Positions 4,478-64,000 of a stretch of 64,000 nucleotides of DNA are shown here, piece after piece. The translations under genes were made by a program, and so were the position numbers. Every line of letters starts with the position of its first letter. The first letter of the stretch is position 1. Below the pieces are notes generated by a model, which saw nothing but the letters and a program-made list of their open reading frames with translations, made no database searches and was not told the DNA's origin. The DNA is from Dehalococcoidia bacterium (GTDB lineage: Bacteria > Chloroflexota > Dehalococcoidia > Lucifugimonadales > UBA3495): assembly GCA_965208825.1 (NCBI GenBank), contig CBDBPP010000005.1, positions 1,038,718 to 1,102,717 of the forward strand. Direction: 5' to 3'.

Positions 4478-4540
4478 GATCAGGTCCCCGGGGCCAGGAC
4501 AGGCGTGAGGAGCCGGCGCCCTCGGGGTCCGATTGGCACG

Positions 4541-5563: not shown

Positions 5564-5717
5564 TAGCGCCCTCCTTGTGGTCCTGCGGAGATGGCGGCCG
5601 CAAGCGCCCGTTTGCCGCCCATTGTCAAGCAGGTCGCCCTCTTTTTCAACAAGGCGCCAACTAGCCCGTGGCCTGCCGCCGGGGCGGGAGGAGGCAGCTG
5701 CCGGTCCACCCGGCGCG

Positions 5718-18075: not shown

Positions 18076-18366
18076 ACCTGGCCTCCGTGATCAGCCCCCT
18101 AGGGCGCCTGGAAACAAGCGGAATGATACCACCTCCTTCCCACCGAAATAATCCGGTGAGGGCGAGGCGGGCCCCTTGCGTAGCCGCAAGTTAGGCCCTG
18201 CAAAGTGTCCCGTCTTACCCGCCAGCTCCGTCAAAGCCCAGGTAGGTCATACACCCCGCACCGGACGGTCGGCGGCAGTGCACGGGGCGCGCGGAATGGC
18301 TATCCAGCCCAGGCAGAGGTTTCGGGAGGGGGACACGCTGGCGCTGATACGGCGTAGAATGTGACG

Positions 18367-19950: not shown

Positions 19951-19953
19951 CAG

Positions 19954-42786: not shown

Positions 42787-43341
42787 TTGGCCCTGCTACA
42801 GGACAGGATCGTGACACAACCCAGCCAGCGTTCCGAAAACTGGGCCCACCTCATAGTCCAGGCCCTCAAGGACTGGGACACCTCGCTCATTGCGTATGTG
42901 CCTGACTCGTCGATTCACCGGGTGACCCGGATCATCGACCAGGACCCTTTCTTCCACCTGGTCTCGGCAACCCGGGAGGAGGAGGCCGTGGGCATCGCTG
43001 TCGGCTCCTACGCCGCCGGACGCAACGCGGCCGTGTTCATGCAGACCAGCGGCTTCGGCAATAGCATCAACGCCCTGGCCAGCCTCTGCATCCCGGCTCG
43101 CACGCCCATCCCGTTCTTCATAAACATGCGGGGCGGGACCGGGGAATTCAACATCTCCCAGGTCCCCATGGGAAGGACCACAGTCCCCATCCTCGACCTT
43201 TTCGGCGTGGTCAACTACACCATTGACGACGACTACCGGATGGACAACCTTCTCGACGGCGCCTTGAAGCTGTGCCACGCCAACCGGCAGCCCGTCGCCA
43301 TCTGCCTCACCCAGAGGCTGCACGGAGGAAAAATTGCGTAG
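42787..43341 (+). CDS. ThDP-dependent decarboxylase alpha subunit (sulfopyruvate decarboxylase ComD-like; the phosphonopyruvate type is not excluded)
   Basis: This is the N-terminal pyrimidine-binding-type domain: LIAYVPDSSIHRV...SATREEEAVGIAVGSYAAGRNAAVFMQTSGFGNSINAL. The start is uncertain (TTG 42787). Confidence 0.55.
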   Translation: MALLQDRIVTQPSQRSENWAHLIVQALKDWDTSLIAYVPDSSIHRVTRIIDQDPFFHLVSATREEEAVGIAVGSYAAGRNAAVFMQTSGFGNSINALASLCIPARTPIPFFINMRGGTGEFNISQVPMGRTTVPILDLFGVVNYTIDDDYRMDNLLDGALKLCHANRQPVAICLTQRLHGGKIA

Positions 43342-43912
43342 GTTCGACGCCACTGCCCTGACCCTGAGGCTGGCCGGCGACCGGGCCATCGTCGGCAACC
43401 TCGGTCCTACCTCCGACGAGCTATGGCACGCCGGCCACCGGGACCGCAATTTCTACACCTATGGCAACATGGGTCTGGTCTCGTCGCTGGCTCTGGGTAT
43501 GGCCCTGGCCACAGACGAGCAGATCATCTCCCTGGACGGCGATGGTTCGCTGCTGATGAACATGGGTGCCTTGGCCTCCATCGGCCGGGAGCAGCCCAAG
43601 AACCTGATAGTTGTCGTTTACGACAATGAGGCCTGGGGCCAGACCGGAAACCAGACGAGCCACACTGGCACCGGCACCGACTTGGAGCAGGTGGCAATAT
43701 CCTGCGGTATTGCAAGCACCACGACCGTGAGCGATCTGGAGGAATACGAGGGAGTTCTGTCCAGTGCCCTGAGCAGCGACGGACCGCACTTTATCGTGGC
43801 CAAGGTTGAAGAGGTGGGCTATCTCCCCGTTGCCCCGGTGGAGCCCGAATTCACGCTCTACCGGTTCCGCAACACCTTCGTGGAGGGCCAGAAGCCCCAG
43901 CCGCCGCACTGA
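43334..43912 (+). CDS. ThDP-dependent decarboxylase beta subunit (ComE-like)
   Basis: TTG lies 4 nt after GGAGGA and overlaps the upstream stop by 8 nt. The diphosphate-binding motif is LDGDGSLLMNMGALASI...VVVYDNEAWGQTG. Confidence 0.55.
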   Translation: MRRFDATALTLRLAGDRAIVGNLGPTSDELWHAGHRDRNFYTYGNMGLVSSLALGMALATDEQIISLDGDGSLLMNMGALASIGREQPKNLIVVVYDNEAWGQTGNQTSHTGTGTDLEQVAISCGIASTTTVSDLEEYEGVLSSALSSDGPHFIVAKVEEVGYLPVAPVEPEFTLYRFRNTFVEGQKPQPPH

Positions 43913-46356: not shown

Positions 46357-48594
46357 TCAGTCTGATATGCCGGCGGGGGTGGGTTCCTCTTCCCGCACCG
46401 CTCCCTCGATCCCTAAGCGGGGCACCCATTCGAGGAACCGCGGATAGTACCAGTTCCACTCGCCCAGCAGCTTCATCGATGCCGGTACCAACACAGACCG
46501 GACGATGGTGGCGTCAATGAAGATGGCGAAGGCGAGTCCGAACCCCATTTGCTGCGCGGAAACGAACTGACCTGTGGAAAAGCCGCAGAACACGGCCACC
46601 ATGATCAGAACCGCGCCGGTGATCAGTCCCGCCGTCGAACGCAGCCCGTAGGCGACTGCCTCGGTGTTGTCTCGAGTCGAGCTAAACCGCTCGCGCACCC
46701 GGCTCAGCAGAAATACGTGGTAGTCCATGGAGAGGCCGAAGAGAATGCAGAAGAGGAACAGCGGCAGCCATGCCTCCACGATGTCCGATTGCTGGAATCC
46801 CAACGGCTCGCCCCATCCGTGAACGAACATCAGCACGATCATGCCGTATGAGGCGCCCACCGAGAGCAGGTTCAGGATGATCGCCTTGAGTGGAACAATG
46901 ATCGAGCTGAAAACCACAGTCAACAGGATGAAACTCATCCCCAGCACGAACACGAACACCCAGGGCGTGACACTTTCCACCATGTCGAAGAAATCCTTGC
47001 TGAAAGCGCTCTCGCCCGTAACGTAAACCCTTGCATCCACCCCTGCAAGTGCCTGGGGGACGTGGACATCCCGCAACCGGCCTATGCGGTCCACCGACTC
47101 GTCGGTGTAGGCGTCTCCCGAGGACTGGACTGTGACCAGTCCCAAGGTACCGGCCTCGTTGGTTTCGTAGGTCGGCCCGACGAAGTCCGGTGCCTCCTCC
47201 AGGGATGCGGTGAGCCGTTCCACAGCAGCCGCCACCGCCGGGTCATTGGTGTCGCCTTCGACTACGATATTGGTCGGGGTGACCGCCCCGGTGCCGCCCG
47301 AGAAGTCCCGTTCCAGGATGTCGTAAGCCTGCCTGCTCTGGAGGTCCGGGGGCAACGAGCTGAACCCGTTGAATCCGACGTCCAGGCTGAGGGCCGGCAC
47401 CGCCGCGGCGATCAGCAACCCTCCGGCGAGCACAAGGCTGGCAATCGGGTAGCGCATGACCGTTCGAGTGGTCCATCCCCAGAACCCGCCCGTGCTGTTC
47501 TCGGCCTCTGTTTCTGTCCGTTGAAGCCGGCGCCCCACTATTGGTATGCGCAGCGAGTTCACTCGGGGGCCGAGGAGGGATAGCACCGCGGGCAGGAGTG
47601 TCAGCGCCGCCATGACGGCGATGATGACTACGACTATGGGCCCCAGTCCCACGGAACGGAAGATGTTGAGCGGGACCAGAAGCATCCCCAGCAGCGCCAG
47701 CACCACGGTCATACCGCTGAAGAACACAGTCCGGTTTGCCGTGTCGCCAATAATCTCGATGGCGCTCAACTTGTCCTTTCCCTGGGCCAGCTCCTCGCGG
47801 AACCGGGAAACCACGATGAGGGAGTAGTCGATCCCCACGGCGAGCCCGATCATGGTCAGCGTCAGCAGGATCGTCTCCACCTGGGGTTCAGCCAAGCCAA
47901 TGGCCGCAACCGACCCCAGGGCAAGGACAATGCCTATTATGGCCAGTCCGATGGGAAGCAGCGCTGCGATTATGCTGCCGAAGAGCACTAGCAGGATGAC
48001 CAGCGCCGCGGGCACGCCGAAACTCTCCCCGCGCTGTATTTCCTGGGCCGCCAGTTCCGCCGTCTCATGGGTGAAGCTCGATTCCCCGAGAATGAAGTGC
48101 TCGAAACCGCCCTCCCCGCTGGTTGCGATGACATGCTCGTAGATTGGCCCTATTTCCTGGGAGGTGTCGTCCATGCTGCCCGCCAACTGGAACTGGATCA
48201 GCGTGGAGCGGCGGTCCCCGGACACGAGGAGCTCGCTACCGGTGTTGTGGTAGGTGAGCACGTTCTCGATGGTGGGAGGGCCCAGCTCGGCGACGGATCC
48301 GGCGAGAGACTCAACCCGCTCGGCGAAGGCGGGATCATACACCGTTTGTTCACCTGAACGGACTATAATGACTTCGTTGCGTAGCGTGGGCCCGGTGAGC
48401 CGTTCCACCAGCAGGTCCTTGCCCACCTGCGAATCCAGGGGGGTCGTGTATCGCGGTTCCTGAGTGATCGCATCGCCAAACCAGACGAACTGCGCCAGCA
48501 CGGCTATGACCACGAGGGCGACCCATAGGGCAATGGTTTTCCAGGGGCGGCGTGCGCTTGCGACAGCCAGCGACCTTGTCATGATATTCAGCAA
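46357..48594 (-). CDS. MMPL-family (RND-superfamily) transporter
   Basis: 745 aa with two blocks of about six TM helices separated by soluble domains. Contains SRFREELAQGKDKLSAIE...FFSGMTVVLALLGMLLVP. The start is TTG 48594 or ATG 48582. Confidence 0.8.
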   Translation of the reverse strand: MLNIMTRSLAVASARRPWKTIALWVALVVIAVLAQFVWFGDAITQEPRYTTPLDSQVGKDLLVERLTGPTLRNEVIIVRSGEQTVYDPAFAERVESLAGSVAELGPPTIENVLTYHNTGSELLVSGDRRSTLIQFQLAGSMDDTSQEIGPIYEHVIATSGEGGFEHFILGESSFTHETAELAAQEIQRGESFGVPAALVILLVLFGSIIAALLPIGLAIIGIVLALGSVAAIGLAEPQVETILLTLTMIGLAVGIDYSLIVVSRFREELAQGKDKLSAIEIIGDTANRTVFFSGMTVVLALLGMLLVPLNIFRSVGLGPIVVVIIAVMAALTLLPAVLSLLGPRVNSLRIPIVGRRLQRTETEAENSTGGFWGWTTRTVMRYPIASLVLAGGLLIAAAVPALSLDVGFNGFSSLPPDLQSRQAYDILERDFSGGTGAVTPTNIVVEGDTNDPAVAAAVERLTASLEEAPDFVGPTYETNEAGTLGLVTVQSSGDAYTDESVDRIGRLRDVHVPQALAGVDARVYVTGESAFSKDFFDMVESVTPWVFVFVLGMSFILLTVVFSSIIVPLKAIILNLLSVGASYGMIVLMFVHGWGEPLGFQQSDIVEAWLPLFLFCILFGLSMDYHVFLLSRVRERFSSTRDNTEAVAYGLRSTAGLITGAVLIMVAVFCGFSTGQFVSAQQMGFGLAFAIFIDATIVRSVLVPASMKLLGEWNWYYPRFLEWVPRLGIEGAVREEEPTPAGISD

Positions 48595-50332: not shown

Positions 50333-51244
50333 TCAGAGGATACCGTGCTCCGCCAGAAACCGGGTAAGGCCGTCCACGCATTGGCCCGGCTGTTCCAGCG
50401 GCAGAAAATGAGTCGCATCGGGCAGGAAGTCATAGTCCACTTCCACAATGTCACTCAGGTCCAGCGTGGGAAGGTAAGAATAGGGCAGCGTGGGGTCCGC
50501 CCCAATGACTTTTACGGGACAGTGGAGACTGGGAAAGTCCACAAGCACTGCGAAAGTGCTGGCGTAGTCCACAATCTGCGCCTCATACTCCCGGGGGCAT
50601 CGCAGCACAAATCCCGGCCCCTCATCGCTGGCGCGCAGTGTTGTTTCGGCCACCAGTTCCATGACCCCTGGCAACGCTCTTTTGAACATTGGCGAAAACT
50701 CCAGCACGCCTGACAGCTGGGACAGCGATTTGAATGTGGGTGTCCGGTTCCTGGCCGCAGCGGCAGCCTTGTTTGCCGCCATTTCGAATTCCTGTAAACC
50801 GCGCCCCGGCTTGCAAAGGGGAGGATCGAAAAGAACCAGGGCCGAGTACGGAGCACCCCGGGTGGACGAAAGCAGGGACACCAGGCCCGATATGGAATGA
50901 AAGACGCCCACGGTGGGTTTATCCCCGAGGGCGCGAAAGACCGACTCGATAATTAGATCGTGGTCCCGAACAAAGGATGGCATGTTGTGGTTATCGAGAG
51001 AGGACACGGAATTCCAGCCGTGGTTGCGCAGGTCATACAGAACCAGGTCAAAGTCGCTGGTCAGGAGAGACCAGAAAGGAAGGTACAGATCGATGGCCAG
51101 GCCGTTTCCATGGCTCAGCAGCAATCTCGGACCATCGGGATTTCCGTGCCGCCTCAGTATGATCCGGGTCTCGTGGTCCACGGGTATCTCGTGAACTGAC
51201 AAGGGCTCCGGCAGGGTCCAACTGGCGTCCGGTTGCATTGGCAT
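50333..51244 (-). CDS. Alpha/beta-hydrolase-fold protein (candidate chain-releasing or lipid-modifying enzyme of the PKS locus)
   Basis: 303 aa. Contains LLLSHGNGL (oxyanion region) and the nucleophile-elbow-like VGVFHSISGL. Confidence 0.65.
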   Translation of the reverse strand: MPMQPDASWTLPEPLSVHEIPVDHETRIILRRHGNPDGPRLLLSHGNGLAIDLYLPFWSLLTSDFDLVLYDLRNHGWNSVSSLDNHNMPSFVRDHDLIIESVFRALGDKPTVGVFHSISGLVSLLSSTRGAPYSALVLFDPPLCKPGRGLQEFEMAANKAAAAARNRTPTFKSLSQLSGVLEFSPMFKRALPGVMELVAETTLRASDEGPGFVLRCPREYEAQIVDYASTFAVLVDFPSLHCPVKVIGADPTLPYSYLPTLDLSDIVEVDYDFLPDATHFLPLEQPGQCVDGLTRFLAEHGIL

Positions 51245-51970: not shown

Positions 51971-52699
51971 TCATCGCACAATCTTTGTATACGCCAGCGC
52001 CGCTGCGAAATCCTCGGTGCTCAGGTCGACGAGAGTCCACGCCGGGGATTGTTTGCCAGGGAACCGGAAATCCGCCGCCTTTTCGCCCGAGATCATGCTT
52101 TCCGGGCCCTGGAACCCTGAGAAATCGGTATACAGGCCAGTGCCCGACCCTTTTGCCAGTGCCTCTTTCATCGTCCAGATGCGATAGAACAGATGCAGCC
52201 TTCTTTTCCCGGTCAAACCCAGCAGTTTCACTTTCTCGTCGGGCCCCATCACAGTGGCGATCAGGCCCTCCAGGTGGCGGCGCGCCAAACGCTCCTCGAC
52301 ATCCACTCCCACCTCGCTGTCCCTGGAGAGAGCGATCAGGCCGTGATTTACGCTGTGGCTCACGTTGAACCTCAGCGACGCAGGTGCGTCGTCCTTCAGC
52401 ACATAGGGTTTGCCATAGGGGGTTGTATCGAATGAAAGATGATGGTTGGGAGAGTCCAGCTGGGATGAGAGGATCGCCCGCAGGGCTGCTCTGCACAGGG
52501 TATACCGGCGGCCCGCACCGGGAAACAGGAACTTGTCGAGTCGCGACAGCTCATCCTTGTTGAGCCATCCGGCCGCTTCCGATTCGTGGGCAGGGTGGCG
52601 GCGCAGGTCTACATGTACAACCGCCACATCGCCTATAACAGAGATTGGGGACCACCACGGCCCTTCCTCCACGGCGGGAGCCCTCGACGGGAACATCAC
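51971..52699 (-). CDS. Sfp-type 4'-phosphopantetheinyl transferase
   Basis: Contains TPYGKPYV, FNVSHSVNHGLIAL, VGVDVE and WTMKEALAKGSGTGL. Confidence 0.85.
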   Translation of the reverse strand: MMFPSRAPAVEEGPWWSPISVIGDVAVVHVDLRRHPAHESEAAGWLNKDELSRLDKFLFPGAGRRYTLCRAALRAILSSQLDSPNHHLSFDTTPYGKPYVLKDDAPASLRFNVSHSVNHGLIALSRDSEVGVDVEERLARRHLEGLIATVMGPDEKVKLLGLTGKRRLHLFYRIWTMKEALAKGSGTGLYTDFSGFQGPESMISGEKAADFRFPGKQSPAWTLVDLSTEDFAAALAYTKIVR

Positions 52700-52753
52700 C
52701 GGAGGTGGGGGGCTTGCCGGTGGCTCAGTTCCGCTGCTGATGGTCGGACCGGT

Positions 52754-52999
52754 TCAGGAGGTCCTGGCCTCGATAAAGGACACCAGGTCTCCCATGGAGT
52801 TGATGCTTGCGCAGTCCTCGGTAGTCAACGTGAAGCTGAAGTCTTGCGCCACGACCTTGGCGAATTCGACGAACTCAACCGAGGAGAGCCCGGAGTCTCG
52901 CAAACTTGAGTCCAGAGCCAGGGGGCTCCCCTTTGAGCGCCCTTCGATTTCCAGGTTATCGTCCACCAGTTGCCGGATCCTTTCTTCCGTTGAAGGCAT
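52754..52999 (-). CDS. Discrete acyl carrier protein
   Basis: GGGAGGA lies 6 nt upstream of ATG 52999. The phosphopantetheine-site region reads LRDSGLSSVEFVEFAKVV. 81 aa. Confidence 0.75.
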   Translation of the reverse strand: MPSTEERIRQLVDDNLEIEGRSKGSPLALDSSLRDSGLSSVEFVEFAKVVAQDFSFTLTTEDCASINSMGDLVSFIEARTS

Positions 53000-53323
53000 T
53001 GCCTTTCCTCCCAATGGTTTTATCCGTTGTCGCTTGCCTGAAATGGCTGTTTAACCAAAGCCCGTGCAAAGTGACACCGAATGATATCACGATAATATCA
53101 CAAAATGTCTGCTGCAAGAGTTCACGAAACCGTGAGATACGTCTGGGCTATAGGAACGGACGGAACTGCATGATGCACCGGATCATATTGGGGACGCTTA
53201 AGGAGGATAGTGAGTTCCTCGCCTTATCGGGCTTTCCCCATGCATAAAGCGGAGCGGATAGACCAGGACTGGAAATTCCCTGTGGCCCTGGCCCATCGCC
53301 GATCACAAATCGGGCTGGCTGCC

Positions 53324-56211
53324 TCACCGTTTCTGCACCCAGAAGCTCCGGCGCTGGAAGGGGTATGCGGGGATAGAGATTTTCCGCCGCTGTTCCCCGG
53401 CGAACAATCCCTGGAATGACAGGGGCACACCGGAGGAGTAGGCCCTAGCGAGACTCCGCACGAACTGCTCCTGCTCCCTCGTTGCTTCTTCTTGCAGTAG
53501 CGGTAAGTCCTCCACCGTACCGGAACGCACTAGGCCCGGAGAAACTGCGCCGTGAGCCGGGCCAATCTCCACGACGAATTCGGCTTCCAGTTCCCGGAGA
53601 ATCTCTGACAGGTCCGAGGATGCCGCCCCCTGACTCATCGCCTGGTACCAGAAGGCTTTGTCCAGCTTGTCGGAGGCACGAATTACCCGGCCTGCTCCGT
53701 TGCTGAACCAGGCTATGGAAGGCACTGTGGCCTCGATGGGGTCCAGAGAGGTTTCGCCGCGTTTTATCGACAACAGCAGTCGCAGCCCATCCTCGAGGGA
53801 TACCACTCCCGAGGCGAAGGCTGCCGCCACCTCGCCTGCACCTTGTCCGTAGACCACTGACGGCTGAACTCCGGCGCCCTTTAGCAGGACCGTGAGACCC
53901 GCGCCGAGGGCGTAAGCAGCGGCCTCCTCCTGTTCGCCGTTCGGCGGCCCGTCTCCGAACAACGCACCGAGCAGTGGGGCGCCCAGTTCCTCCTTGGCCA
54001 CCTCGTCGCATCGGTCCAGCACCGCGCGGAAGACCGGTTCGGTCTCGTAGAGCTCTCGGCCCAGCCCGCCTGTTTGACCTGGCCCACCCCAGTAGACGAA
54101 GGCCGTTCGGACGGAGGCGGTCGGCGGGGACTGGTCGTCCGCGCCCTCCATTGGAACCAGGGATGCCAGGCCCTGCTTCAACTCCACTGCGTCGCGGAAG
54201 GGGAGGGCTCTTCGGTGGTCGAAGTGACTCCTGCCCGTACCAGCCGACCACGCCATGTTCGACAGGGTGGTCCACGCCTCCTCGTTGTTTCGATCAAACA
54301 GTTCCGCCCGTTCCTCCAGCCAGGACAGGTAACGCTGCGCCAAGTCGCTCATTGCCCCCAATGTCTTCCCCGACATCGGCAGGAGCCGGACCCGCCGCTC
54401 CCCCGGTCCGGTCTGTTGTTCCGCCAACACACCGGTTTCGGCCGACACGAGCCGTGGTGCTCCCGCGGGCTCAGGATTTGGGTCCTCGCCGGTGGCAGGC
54501 GCTCCGTAACCCTCCAGGACGACGTGAGCGTTGGTGCCCGAGAGACCGAAGGAGTTGACGGCGGCCAGTGGCCGTCGGTCCCGGCCGTTCGGCCAGGCCA
54601 TGGCTTCCGTCGAAATGCGCAGCGGCATCCGGTCCCAGTCGAAATCGGGATTGGGGTCGCTGAAGTTCAGGTGGGCCGGAATCATCCTCCGATTCAAGGC
54701 AAGGACGGCCTTGATGATGCTTGCCATGCCCGAGGCCCATTCCAGGTGGCCGATATTGGCCTTGGCGGAGCCGACCACCAACGGTTGGTCCGAGGTGCGG
54801 CCCCTGCCATAGACCGAGGCGATGGCGCGCAGCTCGATGGCGTCACCCAGCAGCGTGCCCGTTCCGTGGGCCTCCAGGAAGTCCACCTCCGAGGGGGCAA
54901 CACCCGCTCGGTCCAGGGCATCCTGCATGACGCGCTCCTGGGCCGGGCCGTTGGGAGTCTGGATGGCGGCGCTGACGCCGTTCTGGTTGAGCGCCGTTCC
55001 GCGGACCAGGCCCCAGATTCGGTCCCCGTCCTCTTCCGCCTCTCCGGCCCGCCGCAGCACCAGGACCCCGCACCCTTCGCCGCGCACGAAGCCGTCGGCT
55101 GCGGCGTCGAAGGCGCTGCACCGGCCCGACTCGGAGAGCATTCCGTGTTCCCTATGGAATTGGACTATCGGCTGCGAGAGCAGGGCGTTGACCCCCGCTG
55201 CCAGGGCCAGGTCCACCTCGCCCCTTTCCAACGCCGCCACCGCCTGGTGCACGGCGGCCAGGGACGAGGCGCAGGCCATGTCGATGGGCATGGCCGGGCC
55301 CTCCAGACCGAGGGCGAAGGCGACCCTGCCTGCCGTGACGCTGCTGGTGGTTCCGAAGAAGCTGTCGTTGCCGCCGCTGGCGGCGATCACTTCCCGGTAC
55401 TCGCTGCCGCCGATGCCTAGGTAGAGGCCGGTGCGGCTGCCCCGCAGCCTGCCGGGGTCGATGCCCGCGTCCTCCAGCGCGTGCCAGGTGGTCTCCAGCA
55501 GCATCCGTTGCTGCGGATCCATGGTGCGGGCCAATATGGGCTGTATCCCGAAGAAGCGGGCGTCGAACCGGTCGATGCCGTCGACGAACCCTCCCAGCCG
55601 GTATGCCGGGTCCTCGGCCATGGGGTCGCCGGTCAGGCCGGCCCAGGATCCCGGGTCACGGCGGCCGTCGGTGATCGTTTGCCGCCCCGACTCCAGGATG
55701 TCCCAGTAGGCCGACAGGTCCGGTGCGCCTGGGAATCGACAGGCCATGCCCACGATGGCGATGCTGTCGCCGAGGTTCCCGCTTTCCAGGCGCGGAGGTG
55801 GCGCCGGCATCTCCTCTCGCGCAGCCCCATTTGCGCCCCCGGCCCCCTCGAGTCCCTCGACGATATGGGCGGCCAGGCTGGCCACGTTTGGGTAGTCGAA
55901 TATCGCCGAGTTGGACAGCGCGAACTGTCCCGCCAGGGAGCGATTAAGCCGGTTGCGCAACTCGACGGACATCAGCGAGTCCATGCCCAGGTCGAAGAAA
56001 CCTACCTGCTGCGCCGGGGCCGATGGCAGGCGCAGCACGGCCTGCAACTCCCGCTGCAGGAAGGCGGTGGCAATGTTCGCCTGTTCCAGGGCGGGAGAAT
56101 CCCGGAGCTGGGACACCAGGTCTATTTCCGCCGTTGGCCCGGCATCGTCGCCTTCCAGTTCCCTGGTTTCCTCCATCAGTTCATCCAGGAACGGGGAGGG
56201 CTCAAAGAGGT
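53324..56211 (-). CDS. Type I PKS, distal fragment: ACP-KS-AT0 (AT remnant)
   Basis: ACP motif is GFFDLGMDSLMSVEL (Ser codon 55976-55978). The KS motifs are DMACASS (Cys codon 55271-55273), EAHGTGT and KANIGHLEWASG. The AT-like region has GQGAGE in place of GHSxGE (53831-53848), and the protein ends ...IPAYPFQRRSFWVQKR. The track start TTG 56224 and its first residues derive from the IS end. Confidence 0.85.
53360..54109 (-). other. Degenerate, shortened AT-like domain (AT0)
   Basis: VVYGQGAGEVAAAFASG aligns with AVVGHSLGEIAAAHAAG of the upstream AT, so His is replaced by Gln and the nucleophile Ser by Gly. About 160 residues separate the motif from YPFQ, against about 265 in the intact AT of the same protein. 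Confidence 0.65.
54509..55768 (-). other. PKS ketosynthase domain (Cys-His-His triad intact)
   Basis: Contains IAIVGMACRFPGA, DMACASS, EAHGTGT and GHLEWASG. Confidence 0.8.
55850..56092 (-). other. PKS in-cis ACP domain
   Basis: Contains LGMDSLMSVELRNRL. Confidence 0.75.
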
Positions 56212-56248
56212 TGTCCCGCGTCAACTACTTTTGCCGATTGAGCGTCAA

Positions 56249-57025
56249 TTAGTTTTGCCGGTTCACCTCCTCTGCGTGGCCCCGTTGCTGTGCCGCATCG
56301 GTGCGGTAGCTGGGGACGTCAAACTCCAGGATGACGGAGTGGTGCACCACCCGGTCGATGGCCGCCGCGGTGGCCATGGGGTTGGCGAAGATGCGTTCCC
56401 ACTCGGAGAAGACCAGGTTGGACGTTATGCCCAGGGACCGGCGCTCGTAGCGCTCGGCGATGAGGGTGAAGAGGACCTCGGACTCCTCGGTCCCCTGGGG
56501 CAGGTAGCCCAGGTCGTCCAGCAGCAGGAAGTCGAAGTTGTCCAGCTTGCGCAGCCGGCGGGGCAGGTCCAGGTCGCGCTTGGCGGCGAGGAGGTCCTGC
56601 ACCAGGCGGTAGGCTGGGACGAAGAGGACGGAGTAGCCGGCTTCCACCAAACGGTGGCCCAGGGCGCACAGGGCGTGGGTCTTGCCGGTGCCGGGCAGCC
56701 CGAAAGCCAGCACGTTGACGCCGCGCTCCACGAAGCTCCCCTGGGCCAGATGATCCATTTGCTGCCGGAGCGCCAGGGGCATCCGGTGGTGATCGAAGGT
56801 CTCCCAGGTCTTGCCCGAGGTCAGCCGGGACTCCTTGCGCAGCCGGTGGGTGCGCCGTTGACGGCGATCCTCGGCCTCCTGCTCCAGCACCTCCAGGAGG
56901 ATGGGCAGGGCGTCGCCGTGGCCGGCGGCGGTGAAACGCTCCACCGACTGAGCTTCCATGGTGGGCAACTTGAATTCGTGGCACAGCTGGCCGATGCGCT
57001 CTTGCACGACGCTGGCGTTCATCAT
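56249..57025 (-). CDS. istB: IS21-family helper ATPase IstB
   Basis: 258 aa from ATG 57025. The Walker A motif is GLPGTGKTH and Walker B is FLLLDDLGY. The track ORF extension to 57625 overlaps istA out of frame. Confidence 0.85.
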   Translation of the reverse strand: MMNASVVQERIGQLCHEFKLPTMEAQSVERFTAAGHGDALPILLEVLEQEAEDRRQRRTHRLRKESRLTSGKTWETFDHHRMPLALRQQMDHLAQGSFVERGVNVLAFGLPGTGKTHALCALGHRLVEAGYSVLFVPAYRLVQDLLAAKRDLDLPRRLRKLDNFDFLLLDDLGYLPQGTEESEVLFTLIAERYERRSLGITSNLVFSEWERIFANPMATAAAIDRVVHHSVILEFDVPSYRTDAAQQRGHAEEVNRQN

Positions 57026-58524
57026 CCGCACACCTCCGTCCCGGCCAGGCTGACGGTGAGCAGACCGTCGTAGACCTTCAGGTCCGGCTTCCCGGACAGG
57101 ACCAGCGCTGGGGCCTCGATCGGCTTGGGCTCGACCAGCTCCCGCACCTCGGCGTAGTTGAAGGACCGGCCGGACTCCAGGAGCAGGGACAGCGCGCTGT
57201 CCACATTGGCCTCCATGGTGGTGGCCGCCAGGTGCAGTATCCGCACGTACTCCACATCGGCCCGTTCGCCCCGCCATTCCCGGAGGGCGTCGTAGGCCAG
57301 GCGGAAGCGCAGGGTGGGAAACAGCTGCTCCCGGTAGCGGTAGCGGGCGAAGGCCCCGGGCTTGCGCACCAGGGAATGGATGACGTGGCGGTAATTGACG
57401 TTGACTTCCCCATCGCCGTGCACCCGCGCCATGCGTTCCACGAGGTGGCCCTTGTAGTACACTTCCACCCAGTCGGCGTACAGACGGACCTGCACCTCCT
57501 GGCCGATCAGGCGGGAGGGCACGCTGTAGCTCCGTCCCGCTACCTGGATGGTGCTCCACCGGCGCACCTTGGACTGGTAGTTGGCGTATTCCGGCATGGG
57601 GGCTGGCGGCAGGGGCCGTAGGCAAGCCATTTCCTGCTCCAGCTTCCCCCTGACCAGGCGATTGCGTTTCTCCACCATCTCCCGGACGAAACCGGCGTAG
57701 TCGTCGGCGGTGTGGAAATCGCGGCTGCCCCGCAGGATGAGGGCCTGGTCTATGGCCTCCTTGAGGCGATAGTGGGCGTGCTCGGCGACGCCGTTTTCAT
57801 GGCTCTGGCCGCGATTGATGCGCGTGGACCGGAGTCCGTAGTGGTCCAGCAGGGCGGCGTAATTGTCGTTCAGCGCCCGGGCGCGGCTGCGGCGTATTTC
57901 ATGGGTGAGGGCGGCGGCATTGTCCGAGCGCACCACCTCCGGGACGCCGCCCAGGGTCCAGAGGGCATTCTGCAATCCCTGCTTGAGGGCCAGGAAGGTC
58001 TCGCCGCCGGCCACCTCGGCGTAGTGCCACCCCGAGTGGCTGAGGATCAGATGGAACAGCAGGTGGGGGTAGGGCTGGCCGGCGACGGTCACTCCCAGGG
58101 CCTTGCCGTGAGTGAAGTCCATCTGGGCTTCCCGTCCCGGCGGATGCTCTTGGGGGAAGTACACCTCCTGATCGGGACCGTGCAACGCCCGCCAGTCCTG
58201 CAATCGCCGTTGCAGGGTGCGCAGCTGGGAGGCGTCGAACCGGCCGGGATGGCGCTCCTCCAGCCATTCGATAATCGTCGTCGCCTTCAGCTTCCCCGTC
58301 GGATCGCCCCGCAGCAGGGGCTCAATCTCCTCCTCCCACACCCCGTCGAAGGGGTCGGGCCTGGTTCGCCACCAGCGCTCTTGCTTCGTCTCTGACGGCA
58401 AGGACCCGCGCTGCCACTTGCGCGCTGAGCGCACGCTCATCCCAGCCACCGCGGCCGCCGTCTCCTGGGTCTTTCCTTTCATAAGCCTCTGCCTCAATAG
58501 CCTGACTTGTCGGTCTTTGATCAT
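57022..58524 (-). CDS. istA: IS21-family transposase IstA
   Basis: 500 aa with an N-terminal HTH (KGKTQETAAAVAGMSVRSARKW) and a DDE region (...EAQMDFTHG...VVRSDNAAAL...). Confidence 0.85.
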   Translation of the reverse strand: MIKDRQVRLLRQRLMKGKTQETAAAVAGMSVRSARKWQRGSLPSETKQERWWRTRPDPFDGVWEEEIEPLLRGDPTGKLKATTIIEWLEERHPGRFDASQLRTLQRRLQDWRALHGPDQEVYFPQEHPPGREAQMDFTHGKALGVTVAGQPYPHLLFHLILSHSGWHYAEVAGGETFLALKQGLQNALWTLGGVPEVVRSDNAAALTHEIRRSRARALNDNYAALLDHYGLRSTRINRGQSHENGVAEHAHYRLKEAIDQALILRGSRDFHTADDYAGFVREMVEKRNRLVRGKLEQEMACLRPLPPAPMPEYANYQSKVRRWSTIQVAGRSYSVPSRLIGQEVQVRLYADWVEVYYKGHLVERMARVHGDGEVNVNYRHVIHSLVRKPGAFARYRYREQLFPTLRFRLAYDALREWRGERADVEYVRILHLAATTMEANVDSALSLLLESGRSFNYAEVRELVEPKPIEAPALVLSGKPDLKVYDGLLTVSLAGTEVCG

Positions 58525-58608
58525 TCCGGCACCTCCGTGCCGGAGGGTTTACCTCATCTCTGACCGGCAAAAATAATCGACGCTACCGGCATTCCTTATT
58601 GTCGTTAA

Positions 58609-60468
58609 TCAGAGGTTTTCTCCAAAGACCGGCCAGTCGACAGCCGCCACCATGGAGGCGGTCACATCCTGGGCCACCAGTTGGTCCAGGGCCCTGATGC
58701 CCTGCTGCGGGGAGATCCAGCCGGTACCGGACGCCGCCAGTTGCCGCTCGATCCGTTCCCGCTGTTCCTCCGCCTCTCCCAGGCCGGACCAGGCGCCCCA
58801 GGCTATGGACTGCCCCGGAAGTCCCCGGGAGCGCCGGTAGCCGGCCAGCTGGTCCAGGAAGGCGTTGGCCGCGGCGTGGTTGCCCTGCCCTGAATTCCCC
58901 AGTACCCCGGTCACGCTGGAAAACAGGACGAACATGTCCAGATCCATGTCCTGCGTGGCCCGGTGCAGGTGCCAGGCGCCCAGGATCTTGGGCCATAGCA
59001 CCTGCTCGAACCGGTCCCAGCTCTGGTTGCCCAGGGCCCCGTCGGAGAGCACGCCGACGCTGTGTATGACCCCCGCCAGGGGCGGCAGGTCCCTTTCCAA
59101 GTGTTCCAGCATGGAGTCCAGGGCCTCCCCACTGGTGACGTCGGCCAGCTCCACGTGGACCCTGGCGCCATTCTGCCGCAGCGCCTCGATGGCCTTCTCG
59201 GTCTTCGGGTCCGGGGGCCGGCGACCGTTGAGGACGATGGCGCCCGCGCCCCTCTCGGCCAGCCAGCCGGCGACGGCGGTGCCGATACCGCCCAGGCCGC
59301 CCGTGACGAGGTAAGTTCGGTCGGCGCGCAGTTGGCCCGTTGCCAGGGGTGGCATCACCATGACGTTCTTGCCGATGTGCCGGGCCGAACGCATGAAGTC
59401 CATGGCCGCGACGATTTCCGTCATCGGCCACCTGTTGTGGACCAGGGGCTGGAGATCCCCAAAGGTGAACCTGTTCGTCACCCTCCTCAAGGACGCGCCC
59501 GGCACCCCCGGGGAATGGATTTTCAGGGCATCCACCTCCAGGACCCGGTAGGCGACGTCGGGGCGGTATGCGGCCATGTCCTGCACGCTCCAGATGTCAC
59601 GACGGCTCATTTCCACGAACCGGCCGTTGGGGGCCAGGCACGACAGGCTGGCCTCGATGTACCCCGGCCCGGTCAGGCTGTTGAGGACAACGCTGACGCC
59701 CTCCCCGCCAGTGGCTTCCATGATCTGTTTGCCGAAGTCCGTGGTCCGGCTGTCGAGGACGTCGCGGATACCCAGGGACCGCAGGTAGTCCTGCTTGGGA
59801 GCGCTGGCGGTGGCGAATACCTCCGCGCCCACCGACTGCGCCAGCTGGATCGCGGCCAGGCCGACCCCGCCGGAGGCGGTGTGGACCAGCACCCGGTCGC
59901 CGGGGGCCAACCCGGTGAAGTCGAAGGATAGCTCGGCGGTGACGAAGGACGTGGGTATGGTGGCCAGTTCCGGCGTCGCCAGGCCCTCGGGGGCGTGGGC
60001 CACCATCTCGGCGCGGGTTACCAGCTCCGGGCGGAATGAGCCGATCGCCAGGCCGATCACCCGGTCGCCGGGCGCGAATTCCTCCACGTCAGGCGCGACC
60101 TCCAGGATGCGGCCGCAGAACTCCTTGCCCAGCATGGGGTCCAGGTCTTCGACCCCCATGCCCAGCAGCACGTCAGAAAAGTTCAGCCCGGTGGCCTCCA
60201 CGGCTGCGCGTACCTCTCCCTCTTTCAGTTCCCTGGACATGAGTGCCTCGGCGTGGAGACCTGAGAGATCACCGCCGGAGTCGGGCACCATTGTCCATGA
60301 GGTGTCCTCGGGCAAGGACTGCCTTTCCTGCCCGGATCTGCTGCGGAGGAGACGGGCCGCCAGTCTTTTTCCGTCCCGGTAGGCGATATGGGTTTCCCGG
60401 TCCGGACGCACCAGCTCGCCGGTCAGCCCTGTCACGGGAATGTCGAAGGAGGGGTCAAGATCGATCAT
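58609..60468 (-). CDS. Type I PKS, middle fragment: rest of psiKR, ER and KR; the stop codon is supplied by the IS end
   Basis: The ER NADPH motif is LVHTASGGVGLAAIQLAQ and the KR motif is TYLVTGGLGGIGTAVAGWL. The KR catalytic region reads SSVTGVLGNSGQGNHAAANAFLD, with His where Tyr is expected. The fragment ends VDWPVFGENL followed by a stop that lies within the IS terminus. Confidence 0.85.
   Translation of the reverse strand: MIDLDPSFDIPVTGLTGELVRPDRETHIAYRDGKRLAARLLRSRSGQERQSLPEDTSWTMVPDSGGDLSGLHAEALMSRELKEGEVRAAVEATGLNFSDVLLGMGVEDLDPMLGKEFCGRILEVAPDVEEFAPGDRVIGLAIGSFRPELVTRAEMVAHAPEGLATPELATIPTSFVTAELSFDFTGLAPGDRVLVHTASGGVGLAAIQLAQSVGAEVFATASAPKQDYLRSLGIRDVLDSRTTDFGKQIMEATGGEGVSVVLNSLTGPGYIEASLSCLAPNGRFVEMSRRDIWSVQDMAAYRPDVAYRVLEVDALKIHSPGVPGASLRRVTNRFTFGDLQPLVHNRWPMTEIVAAMDFMRSARHIGKNVMVMPPLATGQLRADRTYLVTGGLGGIGTAVAGWLAERGAGAIVLNGRRPPDPKTEKAIEALRQNGARVHVELADVTSGEALDSMLEHLERDLPPLAGVIHSVGVLSDGALGNQSWDRFEQVLWPKILGAWHLHRATQDMDLDMFVLFSSVTGVLGNSGQGNHAAANAFLDQLAGYRRSRGLPGQSIAWGAWSGLGEAEEQRERIERQLAASGTGWISPQQGIRALDQLVAQDVTASMVAAVDWPVFGENL
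58774..59322 (-). other. PKS ketoreductase catalytic subdomain (Tyr to His at the catalytic position)
   Basis: Contains TGGLGGIG and HSVGVLSDGAL (LxD, B-type-like). The sequence GNHAAAN has CAC at 58876-58878. Confidence 0.7.
59353..60297 (-). other. PKS enoylreductase domain
   Basis: MDR-type domain with GLNFSDVLLGMG and HTASGGVGLAAIQLA. Confidence 0.7.
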
Positions 60469-63400
60469 CCGGGGGGTGCAGGTTTCCTGCCTCCCGGGCC
60501 ACCGCCTTGCCGAAGCCCCAGAGCGAGGCGCCCGCCAGCTCCGCCACGCTGTCGCGCATGTAGTCGCGTTCCAGGGCCTGGGCGCCCCGGGTCACGAACC
60601 AGGTGCCCAGGTTGGGCAAGGTTCCCGCGTCGAGGATGCCCTGCACCATGGCCAGGGCCGAGGCCCCCGCCTTCCTCGTATCCTGGGCCAGTTCGCTGGT
60701 TGAGGCTTCCCTTCCATGGCCGTCAAGGGAGACCAGGTGCACCAGTCCGCTGAAAGGCGCATCCTTGGGCAGTTTCTCGATGAGCGAGCGCCAGTCCTCC
60801 CTGTTTTCCGGGTCCAGCGAGACCCGCATGATTCCATCCGGGGAGACGGATCCGGCGCCGTTGACCTGCGCCCCGGCCAGCGCCACGGTCTGGTTCTGCG
60901 CCGCCAGCTCGGCGGCGAGCTCCTCTGCCACGGCGCCTTCGTCCGACGCCAGTACCCAGACCCCTCGCGGCTGGACTATCTCGCCGGGCCCCCGGGCCAT
61001 GATGACTCCGGAGCCGAGGGGAGGCTCGTCGCTCCCCCGATCTCCGCCCAACACCCTGGCATCCTCCATCCCGACGTCGGTGAGCGCACGGACCCAGGTG
61101 TCCGGGGAGGCCAGGGCGTGCTCGGTCCTGTAGGCATCGGAAAACCGCCACCAGCCGTCCAGCTGCCCAAAGGTCAGGTCCTGCCACCCTCGGGCCCGGA
61201 GACCCTCCAGGGCCATCAACTGCCCCGAGGGGGCCAGCAGGTCGCGGCAATGGGAGAGAGTCTCGCCCAGGTCCCTGGTGGCGTGCAGCACGTTTACCGC
61301 GATGACCAGGTCGTAGGAGTGCAGTTCGAAACCCTGGGTGGCCGGATCCCTTTCCACGTCCAATGTGCGGTATTCCATGGGCGCGCCGTATTCCTCGAAG
61401 CGCTCCTCTGCCGAGGCGAAGAAACCGGCGGAGATGTCGGTGAAGACGTATTCGAAATTATCCGCCGGGAGCTGCGGAAGTACGACGGCGGTCCCCGAGC
61501 CGGTACCGCCCCCCACTTCCAGCACCCGCAGGGAACGATCCCCGGGCCACTGCGCCACGGCGGAGGTCACCGCATCGGCCAGGAGCCGGTTGGATGCTCT
61601 AGATGCCGGGGCGGTGAAGTAGAAATCCGCAGCATTCGGACCGTCGCTCCGGAACAGGATGGACAGGGGGTCCGTATTGCCCTGCAGCACCTCGGACAGG
61701 GCAGCTCCGCTCCGGCGCAGCAGACCCACCTCGTTTGCACCGTGGGGATGGCGCTCGGTGATCAGGTCCGCGAAGCTCTCCGGATCGGCCAGGGCCTCGT
61801 CCGGGAGGGGATCGCCAGCCCCGATGGTCACCCGGAAACTGTCCGTCCCGGTCGGGACCAGTACACCGGCATCACAGAGCAGTTTCAGCATCCGGCCCAT
61901 CAGCCGGGAATGAGCTGGCATTACTTCGAAACGTGCCAACAGGTCGTCGGCCCTGACGGCTTCACCGGCGGTTCTGTGCCAACCCAGCCGTTCGAGGGCG
62001 TGGAGCACGTAAGAACGGGAGAGTCTCTCCAGATCATCCAGCATGGTGGCGCGGTCCCCGATGCCGACTCCCTCCTCTCCCAGGTAACCGGCGAAGGTAT
62101 CGACCGTCCCGGCGGTTTCCGATGGAGAGATCAGCTCCCCGGCGGAAAGCAAGGCGGTGGAAAGAGGGGCATCCCGCCAGACGGTCTCGTACAGCAGACC
62201 CTGGAGGGCTTCCGAGGCGGAAAGCAGGGAGGCCCTGGTGGCCCGCTTCACGGTGAATCCGGACAGCCCCCCGACGGGTTTTCCCTCCTCGTTGTACAAC
62301 CACATGTCCCCGGTCAGGGTCTCCGGCGACGAAGCCACCCCGTCAGCTTGGGCAGTAGCCCCGCCCGAAATTCGCAGTCGAGCATGGCACACCACCCGGT
62401 CCTGCAACGGGCCGTCCAGCCAGAAACGTTCCCAGCCGAAGGGCAAGTAGGTCTCGTCGCCCCCAACACCGGAAATCATGCGGGTGGCTGAAAGCACCTG
62501 GAAGCAGCCGTCAAGGAGCAGGGGATGGATCTCCATACCCGCGCCGTCGCTCGGTCCCTGCAGCGCGATTTCCCCGACAGCTTCTGAGCTCTCGCACCAC
62601 AGCCCGGTCACGGTGCGCAGGCTGGGGCCGAATGCCAGGCCCGAGGCCGCTTTGTCCCGGTAATAGGCGGCCAGGTCCTGCTCCCGCAGCCTGCGCTTGA
62701 GCTGGGCGAAATCCACCCACTCCCCGCTTGGGTGGCGGTCAGGACCCTGTTCGATGTCACCCTCGGCGTGCAGCGTCCAGCCCTCCCCGGCGGAATCACG
62801 GCTGTAGACCTCGAAGTGGCGGGACTGCCCTGTTCTCGCCCCGTCGGTAACTATCTGTAGGCGTTTGCCAGCCGACTCCCCATCGCTGTCCTCGGGGAAC
62901 ACCAGCGGACTGTGCAGTTGAAGGTCGCTGACCACGGAGGTGGACGCTCCCTCGGTGAAGGGAACGGAGGCCGCCATGGCCCCGTATACCGCGCCGGGCA
63001 TGACCACCCGGCCGTACACCCGGTGATCGTCCAACCAGGCGGGATCGGTCGGGAGCATTTCCGTCTCGAACATGACCTCGCCCCGGGGCGACTCGTGCCT
63101 GGTTCCCAGCAGGGCGTGGGCGTCGCTCGACTGCGCTCGCCTGGCCGAGGGGACCCAGTGGCGGCGGCGCTGGAAGGGGTAGGTCGGCAGCGGAATCCTC
63201 CGACGCCTTTCGCCAGCGAACAACCCCGGAAAATGCAGGGGCAGCCCGGCCTCGTACGCTCGTGCGACGGCCCGAGCGAAGGCCTCGGCCCGCTCCGGCT
63301 CCGACCCGTCGGCAGCAGGCCGAAGCAGGCTGGGCATCACGAGGGGCGCCCCGGGCCTGCCCGGACCCTCCGGCCAGTTGAGAGATACCAGGGGACCCAG

Positions 63401-64000
63401 GATGGCGTGCGGCCCGAGCTCGATCACGGCGTCCACTCCCAGGTCCGCCAGGCTTTCCACGCAACCGAGGAAGGCTACGGGCTGCCGGGCCTGCCCGCGC
63501 CAGTAGGCGCCGTCCATCGCCGTTTCTGGTCCGACGGGCTTTCCGGTTATATTGCTGATGAGCGGGGTCGAGGGAGCGGCCACCTCCACACCGTCGAATA
63601 CGGCTTCCAGGCCGTCCAGGGCCGGCTCAACGAGGGGGCTGTGGTAGGCCGGGCTTGGCCTCAGCCGAAGCACGTTCATGCCCTCCGATTCCAGGAGGCT
63701 GCAGAATTCGTCAACCTCCCCGGCGGGGCCGCTGATCACCTGCTGGGTGCCGTTGTCCACCCCGATGCAGAGGTCCGAGGAACCCTGGGACTCATGCCAG
63801 CGGTTGACCGCCACCTCTACACGGGATGCGGGGGCGAACACGGCGGCCATGGCTCCGGCCCTGGGGATTGCTCCCATCAGTCTTCCTCTGGTGGAGGCGA
63901 ATCTGAGTCCGGTCTCGAGGGAGAACACGCCGGCGGCATGGGCCGCGGCAATCTCCCCCAGGCTGTGGCCCACCACCGCGTCGGGGCGGAGGCCCAGGCT
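60455..64000 (-). CDS. Type I PKS, proximal fragment: AT-DH-cMT-psiKR; the N-terminus is beyond the right window edge
   Basis: The frame stays open to 64000 (…SLGLRPDAVVGHSLGEIAAAHAAG, the AT GHSLGE motif). The post-AT linker is YPFQRRRHW, the DH motif is LDDHRVYGRVVMPGAVY, and the methyltransferase motif is LRVLEVGGGTGSGT. The psiKR part ends ...SLWGFGKAVAREAGNLHPP and then shifts frame. Confidence 0.85.
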   Translation of the reverse strand, partial: SLGLRPDAVVGHSLGEIAAAHAAGVFSLETGLRFASTRGRLMGAIPRAGAMAAVFAPASRVEVAVNRWHESQGSSDLCIGVDNGTQQVISGPAGEVDEFCSLLESEGMNVLRLRPSPAYHSPLVEPALDGLEAVFDGVEVAAPSTPLISNITGKPVGPETAMDGAYWRGQARQPVAFLGCVESLADLGVDAVIELGPHAILGPLVSLNWPEGPGRPGAPLVMPSLLRPAADGSEPERAEAFARAVARAYEAGLPLHFPGLFAGERRRRIPLPTYPFQRRRHWVPSARRAQSSDAHALLGTRHESPRGEVMFETEMLPTDPAWLDDHRVYGRVVMPGAVYGAMAASVPFTEGASTSVVSDLQLHSPLVFPEDSDGESAGKRLQIVTDGARTGQSRHFEVYSRDSAGEGWTLHAEGDIEQGPDRHPSGEWVDFAQLKRRLREQDLAAYYRDKAASGLAFGPSLRTVTGLWCESSEAVGEIALQGPSDGAGMEIHPLLLDGCFQVLSATRMISGVGGDETYLPFGWERFWLDGPLQDRVVCHARLRISGGATAQADGVASSPETLTGDMWLYNEEGKPVGGLSGFTVKRATRASLLSASEALQGLLYETVWRDAPLSTALLSAGELISPSETAGTVDTFAGYLGEEGVGIGDRATMLDDLERLSRSYVLHALERLGWHRTAGEAVRADDLLARFEVMPAHSRLMGRMLKLLCDAGVLVPTGTDSFRVTIGAGDPLPDEALADPESFADLITERHPHGANEVGLLRRSGAALSEVLQGNTDPLSILFRSDGPNAADFYFTAPASRASNRLLADAVTSAVAQWPGDRSLRVLEVGGGTGSGTAVVLPQLPADNFEYVFTDISAGFFASAEERFEEYGAPMEYRTLDVERDPATQGFELHSYDLVIAVNVLHATRDLGETLSHCRDLLAPSGQLMALEGLRARGWQDLTFGQLDGWWRFSDAYRTEHALASPDTWVRALTDVGMEDARVLGGDRGSDEPPLGSGVIMARGPGEIVQPRGVWVLASDEGAVAEELAAELAAQNQTVALAGAQVNGAGSVSPDGIMRVSLDPENREDWRSLIEKLPKDAPFSGLVHLVSLDGHGREASTSELAQDTRKAGASALAMVQGILDAGTLPNLGTWFVTRGAQALERDYMRDSVAELAGASLWGFGKAVAREAGNLHPPDDRS
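61097..61759 (-). other. PKS C-methyltransferase domain
   Basis: SAM motif I, LEVGGGTGSG, lies at about 61499-61528. Also present are DLVIAVNVLHAT and LLAPSGQLMALE. Confidence 0.7.
62222..63121 (-). other. PKS dehydratase domain
   Basis: HxxxGxxxxP lies at 62996-63025 (HRVYGRVVMP). A later motif reads LLLDGCFQ. Confidence 0.7.
63170..64000 (-). other. PKS acyltransferase domain (partial, active-site GHSLGE present)
   Basis: Domain limits were estimated from residue counting in ORF 60455..63976. The specificity-region motif reads PAYHS. Confidence 0.7.

Follow-up and report, generated by a model that had tools for sequence, protein, structure and literature searches.

Among insertion sequences (IS) of the IS21 type, IS5376 of Geobacillus stearothermophilus generates 5-bp target duplications with no strong target specificity, ends in CA and carries the repeats L1/L2 and R1/R2 about 23 bp apart, and the catalytic triad of its transposase IstA (D124, D187, E233) has a spacing of 63/46 (PMC10122671). 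Here we describe an element of the same type in a 64,000-nucleotide stretch of contig CBDBPP010000005.1 (assembly GCA_965208825.1; the whole stretch analysed is hereafter called the window), where it interrupts a type I polyketide synthase (PKS) gene. The host is probably a sponge-associated bacterium of the Chloroflexota (Dehalococcoidia). Sponge-associated bacteria frequently carry Sup clusters, in which a compact type I PKS combines a C-methyltransferase with a complete reducing loop and stands beside genes for an acyl carrier protein (ACP), a phosphopantetheinyl transferase (PPTase) and a hydrolase. Their reference architecture is a single reducing module of ketosynthase (KS), acyltransferase (AT), dehydratase (DH), methyltransferase (MT), enoylreductase (ER), ketoreductase (KR) and ACP domains, in the order KS-AT-DH-MT-ER-KR-ACP, plus the accessory ACP, PPTase and hydrolase. 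Fieseler et al. (2007) reportedly described these mono-modular PKS/fatty acid synthase (FAS) clusters of sponge symbionts and proposed that they make methyl-branched fatty acids.

All of the relevant genes (those of the IS, the synthase and the downstream cluster) lie on the minus strand of the window. We regard it as highly likely that one autonomous IS21-family element transposed into the linker between the KR and ACP domains of a type I polyketide/fatty-acid-like synthase with the architecture ...AT-DH-cMT-ER-KR-ACP-KS-AT° (cMT, C-methyltransferase; AT°, a short AT-like domain without the active-site serine). The features of the element are as follows.

56212..58611, minus strand: complete insertion sequence assigned to the IS21 family, 5'-TG...CA-3', 2400 bp (sequence read; copies aligning over 1-2400)
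58612..58616, unstranded: target-site duplication copy on the istA side, GAGGT on the plus and ACCTC on the minus strand (sequence read and the empty site in contig L004, described below)
56207..56211, unstranded: target-site duplication copy on the istB side, GAGGT on the plus and ACCTC on the minus strand (sequence read)
58564..58611, minus strand: left (istA-proximal) terminal inverted repeat (sequence read, motif scan, family comparison)
58586-58605, minus strand: outer left repeat L1, variant ACGACAATAAGGAATGCCGG (sequence read, family comparison)
58564-58583, minus strand: inner left repeat L2, GCGTCGATTATTTTTGCCGG (sequence read, motif scan)
56212..56261, minus strand: right (istB-proximal) terminal inverted repeat (sequence read, motif scan, family comparison), with outer repeat R1 at 56218-56236 and inner repeat R2 at 56242-56261 (sequence read, motif scan)
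57022..58524, minus strand: istA, predicted DDE transposase, 500 aa (NCBIfam NF033546, Pfam, conserved D136/D201/E248/K255 in 20 homologs)
56249..57025, minus strand: istB, predicted AAA+ helper ATPase, 258 aa (NF038214, PF01695, match to 8q3w)

The original prediction, made from the letters of the window alone, had placed a 2400-bp unit with TG and CA ends between two GAGGT copies, and a script check of the sequence returned the same: exactly 2400 bp between the two copies, with TG as the first and CA as the last bases. The boundaries were also fixed independently of that prediction, by a 100%-identical copy on another contig (L001, see below) that aligns over exactly 1-2400 and by relatives that stop at the same bases. 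The ends read TGATTAAC... and ...GCGGGACA, and both termini are conserved across related copies. Two subterminal copies of one motif had further been claimed for each end. A scan of the 64-kb window with the motif GCGTCAAYTANTTTTGCCG gave three matches at three or fewer mismatches (0.05 expected from shuffles), all of them at the element ends (56218, 56242 and 58565, minus strand), which upholds three of the four repeats. The fourth, L1, which had been placed at 58586-58604, has about six mismatches to the motif, yet stands in the correct register. As its variant form is conserved across related copies, within a four-repeat layout (two per end) that is itself kept, L1 is a feature of the family and not a product of decay. 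The repeats start 22 nt apart on the left (L1 at 58605, L2 at 58583) and 24 nt apart on the right (R1 at 56218, R2 at 56242), and the istB stop codon falls within R2. The G+C content of the element, about 66-68%, matches that of the host gene. An outward-facing, -35-like TTGACG is present in the right end (56212-56224, minus strand), 7 nt from the tip; no matching -10 was seen in the PKS flank. This TTGACG and the GACAAT of the left end could form a promoter if the two ends abutted, as promoters do at the abutted ends of IS21 junctions.

The istA stop (TGA) and the istB start (ATG) overlap as ATGA at 57025-57022, and the IstA-like and IstB-like proteins that had been read from the sequence both score above their NCBIfam cut-offs. 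IstA reaches 203.6 bits (cut-off 160) against NF033546 'IS21 family transposase', covering profile positions 2-294 of 294, and IstB 227.1 bits (cut-off 200) against NF038214 'IS21-like element helper ATPase IstB'. In Pfam, IstA matches Mu-transpos_C_2, with a weak rve match below cut-off (27.5 vs 32.6), and IstB matches IstB_IS21 (PF01695, 169.6 bits). Moreover, IstB aligns to the IS5376 IstB structure 8q3w (E=1.9e-37), with Walker A (GLPGTGKTH) and Walker B (LLLDDLGY) aligned. In an alignment of 20 homologs, IstA residues D136, E248 and K255 (E248 +7) do not vary and D201 reaches at least 90% conservation; the putative triad D136/D201/E248, with a spacing of 65/47, is very probably intact. 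Taken together, these matches support membership of the IS21 family. Two in-frame starts of IstA are found 14 codons apart (58482-58524, minus strand): M1 has a GGAGG site, and M15, at 58482, is invariant and gives the 486-aa form, which is the call in most databases. Exact-protein look-ups found no record of the 500-aa IstA; the 486-aa form and IstB are on record.

The synthase is present as three fragments, separated by the IS and by a frameshift further upstream. They are listed here with the frameshift site; the comparisons draw on a syntenic contig, L004 (ENA ERZ25069412), and its protein P0225.

60477..64000, minus strand: PKS fragment, (AT)-DH-cMT plus structural KR region (Pfam Acyl_transf_1 (partial), PKS_DH_N, PS-DH, Methyltransf_12)
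60471-60476, minus strand: G6 run, read as C6 on the coding strand and one base too long, a +1 frameshift (P0225 frames, nucleotide alignment to L004, repaired-frame translation)
58612..60470, minus strand: PKS fragment, ER-KR (Pfam ADH_N, ADH_zinc_N, KR; tblastn of P0225 residues 1833-2428, frame -2)
53324..56211, minus strand: PKS fragment, ACP-KS-AT° (Pfam PP-binding, ketoacyl-synt, partial Acyl_transf_1)

The frame of the first fragment is open from 60458 to the window edge at 64000, and the fragment runs off that edge. Between the other two, deleting 56212-58616 joins ...VDWPVFGENL to FEPSPFLDELMEE... in frame, as predicted, and yields one open reading frame (ORF) of 1579 aa. This restored protein is fully covered, in a single local alignment, by over 100 database homologs at 52-62% identity. 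In 119/120 homologs the best alignment takes in 50 or more residues on each side of the junction, reading through ...VDWPVFxENxxExPPFLxxLL..., in agreement with the claim that the junction is the expected KR-to-ACP linker. The insertion point is thus placed in the variable KR-ACP linker.

Contig L004 is syntenic with the window, about 78-81% identical at the nucleotide level and contiguous across the insertion site: window positions 64000..58611 (minus strand) align with L004 11972..17373, and window positions 56215..53337 with L004 17364..20266. The restored junction GAAAACCTCTTTGAGCC aligns without gaps to GAAAATCTCTTTGAGCC of L004, in which the target occurs once; the IS-free junction sequence expected at the site is GGAGAAAACCTCTTTGAGCCC. 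L004 thus shows the site of a related genome without the IS. The junction is colinear both here and in the 119/120 homologs; a non-colinear junction was the outcome that the original prediction had named as counting against it. In L004, a contig of 3x coverage, the syntenic PKS is split into several short ORFs by frameshifts (17377-20297). Many database homologs of the synthase are fragments because of frameshifts in such assemblies, and gene boundaries there are unreliable.

Further copies of the element were sought by scanning species-representative genomes, which gave 273 stretches encoding an IstA relative. The best 80 were examined, and all came from Chloroflexota/Dehalococcoidia/SAR202 metagenome-assembled genomes (MAGs) or from one MAG labelled only 'bacterium'. 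Through the 486-aa IstA on record, a copy 100% identical over all 2400 bp was located on L001 (ENA ERZ25069580, 42.8 kb) at 5872-8271, in an unrelated context beside Replic_Relax, resolvase and restriction-endonuclease-like genes, and with the 5-bp duplication GCCGG. L005, from MAG RHO3_bin_2, holds another copy at 98.8% identity, this one flanked by the duplication CCCTG. The exact IstA (486-aa form) and IstB proteins are present on five contigs. The insertion had been called recent and the element possibly mobile, and these observations strengthen both points: because an identical copy with a different duplication exists elsewhere, the exact proteins recur on five contigs, the ORFs and ends are intact and the putative DDE motif and the Walker motifs are conserved, a recent insertion in evolutionary terms is supported, and the element is probably still transposition-competent. 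Near the identical copy, Replic_Relax, restriction-endonuclease-like, RHH and resolvase genes occupy L001 8259-12156, and L001 may be a plasmid or integrative element able to carry the IS between hosts.

In all, 71 distinct full-length related copies were examined. Perfect 5-bp duplications flank 49/71, 6-bp duplications 4/71, and the remaining 18/71 have none. The second position of the 5-bp target is C in 33/50 cases, the studied site included, which suggests a weak target bias at that position. Related copies in Dehalococcoidia/SAR202/Chloroflexota MAGs (e.g. OY760687.1, OZ253486.1, CAXXKY01, RHO3_bin_2) have 85-99% nucleotide identity over 2400 bp and the same termini, mostly with 5-bp duplications. 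At least 28 loci were counted in OY760687.1 (L024-L055; a 3.9-Mb chromosome), at least 13 in OZ253486.1 (L056, L071-L083) and nine in CAXXKY01 (L006-L014), with copies 85-88% identical to the studied element in these three. The IS lineage thus seems to have expanded in several Dehalococcoidia MAGs. Two copies of OY760687.1 (L031 5549-7962 and L037 3915-6328) have reciprocal flanks, GCTAT/AGGCA and AGGCA/GCTAT, the mark left when recombination between IS copies inverts or otherwise rearranges the DNA between them. Some of the copies that are without a duplication form reciprocal pairs of this kind, as expected once copies have recombined. Two full copies on L028 (3915-6328 and 6967-9380) are only about 640 bp apart and could form a composite transposon, and on L031 a truncated copy (3915-5546) directly abuts the full one (5549-7962), suggesting nested or tandem insertion. 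The idea that the family targets PKS genes was rejected, as a synthase homolog was found within the 4-kb flanks of none of the 79 other IS loci; the PKS insertion appears to be a one-off and not a preferred target.

It had also been claimed that the IS cleanly bisects the megasynthase and that its excision restores the frame. The frame is indeed restored across the two ORFs that flank the IS, but a clean split of an otherwise intact gene is an overstatement. There is a second lesion 1.86 kb upstream of the IS, and because of this +1 frameshift in the G-run, excision alone fails to rebuild the whole synthase. P0225 matches the window with residues 658-1833 in frame -1 and residues 1833-2428 in frame -2, and the nucleotide alignment with L004 has a single-base gap in the G-run at 60471-60476. 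The frameshift falls between the cMT/structural-KR region and the ER, within the conserved ...AREAGxLxPRMIDLDP.... If only the IS is deleted, the frame that enters from the window edge meets a stop at residue 1181; if one duplication copy and one G are deleted with it, that frame stays open for 2756 aa and ends at the synthase's natural stop. Owing to the frameshift, the ATG at 60468 is not a gene start but an internal Met of the conserved segment. A real gene boundary at the MT/ER break was considered and rejected, as the N-termini of homologs spread almost continuously and the longer ones read through ...LQPRMIDLDP.... Given this scatter, the many database entries that start at the ER are fragments and no sign of a natural split. 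The ORFs 58609..60468 and 53324..56224 should accordingly not be called separate PKS genes; they are best regarded as fragments of one synthase. No other stops or indels were seen in the 8.3 kb of coding sequence, decay beyond the two lesions was not found, and a limited survey of the window revealed no further frameshifted genes. Frameshifted supA sequences are common, making up 15.4% of amplicons (PMC4245539).

Several points weigh against the account of a recent, still mobile insertion that inactivated the gene. No IS-free allele of the same species was found among the protein homologs (best full-length 62%, best partial 82% identical), so that the search for IS-free alleles suggested with the original prediction succeeded for a related genome only, and a degenerate 'empty-site' pattern had 0 matches in JGI metagenome contigs. 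In a phmmer search of PDB sequences, which include the solved IS5376 IstA, the IstA studied here had no match even at E<=10. Its AlphaFold2 model, built from a shallow alignment, has a mean pLDDT (predicted local distance difference test) of 50.5, with the DDE region below 50, too poor for fold comparison; the putative DDE assignment rests on motif, spacing and conservation. The correctness of the assembly at base level and the population frequency of the insertion are both inferred. Finally, owing to the frameshift, the gene may have been dead before the IS arrived, in which case the IS would perhaps not be the cause of inactivation.

This last point is the alternative that survives best. The synthase could already have been a pseudogene through the G-run frameshift, with the IS a later passenger in dead DNA, and although we think this unlikely it deserves to be kept in view. 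The frameshift is present relative to the L004 ortholog and to all long homologs, and the stop at residue 1181 persists once the IS is taken out. However, with no other stops or indels in the coding sequence and the checked motifs intact, any decay would have to be very young, and one surplus base in a 6-nt homopolymer is also the error that long-read assemblies make most often. The frameshift is either a second inactivating mutation or such an error, and the order of the two lesions is probably not one that a single sequence can tell.

The sequence shows a canonical IS21-type integration in which staggered 5-bp cuts duplicated the target ACCTC, with the IS in the same orientation as the synthase. 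The ER-KR ORF (58609..60468) has ...VDWPVFGENL as its last synthase residues, followed by a stop formed by the first three bases of the IS, TGA (58609-58611), which terminates the upstream half exactly at ...GENL. The ACP-KS-AT° half is left without a translation start of its own. As had been noted for this stop and for the start of the downstream ORF (53324..56224), both derive from the IS, the latter contributing a TTG and the codons for T-R-D (56224-56213). No Shine-Dalgarno-like sequence was read upstream of the IS-borne TTG, and independent expression of the ACP-KS-AT° half is therefore unlikely. When the minus strand of the IS was scanned by consensus, no terminator-like site turned up, so transcription may read through into the ACP, PPTase and hydrolase genes. 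We infer that the synthase is inactivated, and with its gene interrupted by both an IS and a frameshift, the cluster is best annotated as probably non-functional in the studied genome.

It is very improbable that the split is tolerated, with both halves made and cooperating and the downstream half translated from the TTG (56224) or by read-through from istAB. Such an arrangement would be favoured by an insertion in a variable linker, by an IS that is co-oriented with the gene and free of terminator-like sites on that strand, and by a TTG within the IS end that is in frame with the ACP. However, the TTG is not preceded by a Shine-Dalgarno-like sequence, the carrier domain would be severed from the module it serves with no docking elements to join them, a natural split at this point is seen in none of the 120 homologs, 119 of which continue through it, and the additional frameshift points to a dead gene. 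We give similarly little credence to the IS family acting as a population-level on/off switch or gene-splitting agent for lipid-type PKSs, with the halves expressed via istAB read-through. This reading starts from the expansion of the IS family in these Chloroflexota and from a break that falls exactly in a flexible KR-ACP linker; if true, such switching or splitting would touch a type of lipid PKS that is probably common among sponge symbionts.

Least credible of all is an assembly artefact in which a repeated IS was misplaced or collapsed into an intact PKS gene, since, for all that the IS is multi-copy (exact proteins on five contigs, dozens of relatives per genome) and that such elements sit at contig ends in short-read assemblies (L005, L017, L019), the flanks are two halves of one colinear gene around a perfect 5-bp duplication of a target occurring once in the ortholog, a pattern not produced when an assembler joins unlinked sequences at a repeat.

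The genes that follow the synthase, in the same order as in L004, are as follows.

52757-53050, minus strand: free-standing ACP (Pfam)
51974-52753, minus strand: PPTase (Pfam)
50333-51244, minus strand: alpha/beta hydrolase (Pfam)

A gene for an MMPL-family transporter (46357-48594, minus strand) lies about 1.7 kb downstream of this PKS-ACP-PPTase-hydrolase set on the same strand and is a plausible exporter of a lipid product. Exact-protein look-ups of the 619-aa ER-KR ORF and the 303-aa hydrolase returned no record. Taking the window and L004 together, the synthase has the architecture (KS)-AT-DH-cMT-ER-KR-ACP-KS-AT°, the N-terminal KS-AT being seen only in L004/P0225; by analogy with L004, the full synthase would be roughly 3,400 aa long. 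Its natural C-terminus is ...YPFQRRSFWVQKR, and 101/120 homologs end within about 20 aa of it. In AT°, GQGAGE replaces GHSxGE (around 53835-53852, minus strand; restored residues 1406-1411), and the same is seen in homologs that cover the site, with the motif G[QH]GxGE found family-wide. Truncation or decay of this domain was rejected, because the serine-less motif and the C-terminus are both family-wide; AT°, which follows the second KS, is thus a remnant of an AT that occurs naturally in this family and is non-catalytic. In the KR, the corresponding motif is GQGNHAAANAF (around 58886-58918, minus strand; restored residues 527-537), with His in essentially all 120 homologs at the position where canonical type I PKS/FAS ketoreductases have the catalytic Tyr (YAAAN). 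The other motifs checked (KS Cys/His/His, ACP DSL and the KR NADPH site) are intact.

Elsewhere in the window, overlapping small ORFs carry TPP_enzyme_N and TPP_enzyme_C separately (42787-43912, plus strand). They were considered as a sign of a frameshift-prone assembly, a reading that was rejected because they resemble a natural two-subunit sulfopyruvate/phosphonopyruvate decarboxylase. With a TauE/SafE sulfite exporter gene (3722-4477, minus strand), they hint at organosulfonate metabolism.

In its domain set and its ACP/PPTase/hydrolase neighbours the synthase resembles the Sup clusters (PMC3908369, PMC4245539); Sup membership is a lead that this likeness of architecture suggests. An IS in a biosynthetic gene is commonplace, and neither the known IS21 mechanism nor PKS biology is changed by this case. 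What it adds is an IS21-family element that had no name before, occurs in abundance in MAGs of Chloroflexota/Dehalococcoidia and is apparently active. Such an element matters for the plasticity of the genomes of these uncultured bacteria and for how their assemblies fragment.

Among annotated plasmids (PLSDB/RefSeq), the closest IstA proteins are about 43-45% identical over 97-100% of the query, and all are annotated as IS21 family. The best plasmid nucleotide matches, one of them to an ISAZo16-family element, have about 65-69% identity and cover no more than a third of the query. ISAZo16 of Aromatoleum aromaticum EbN1 and the istA genes of Burkholderia/Paraburkholderia share its two-gene organisation at low identity. 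Under the ISfinder convention, a new name is given below 95% amino acid or 90% nucleotide identity to any named IS. The element is thus probably an unnamed member of a known family that would receive a new IS name. As in IS21 and IS5376, istA precedes istB and the stop codon of the one overlaps the start of the other, the termini are TG...CA, each end has two direct repeats, and 5 bp of target are duplicated with no strong target specificity. Its repeat spacings of 22 and 24 nt compare with 23 bp in IS5376, and its putative IstA triad spacing of 65/47 with 63/46. The M1/M15 start pair of IstA is reminiscent of the transposase/cointegrase pair of IS21. However, IstA has 500 aa as against 400 aa in IS5376, with no similarity between the two detectable by phmmer, and, unlike in IS21 and IS5376, L1 at the outer left departs in sequence from the other three repeats, in a form that is conserved.

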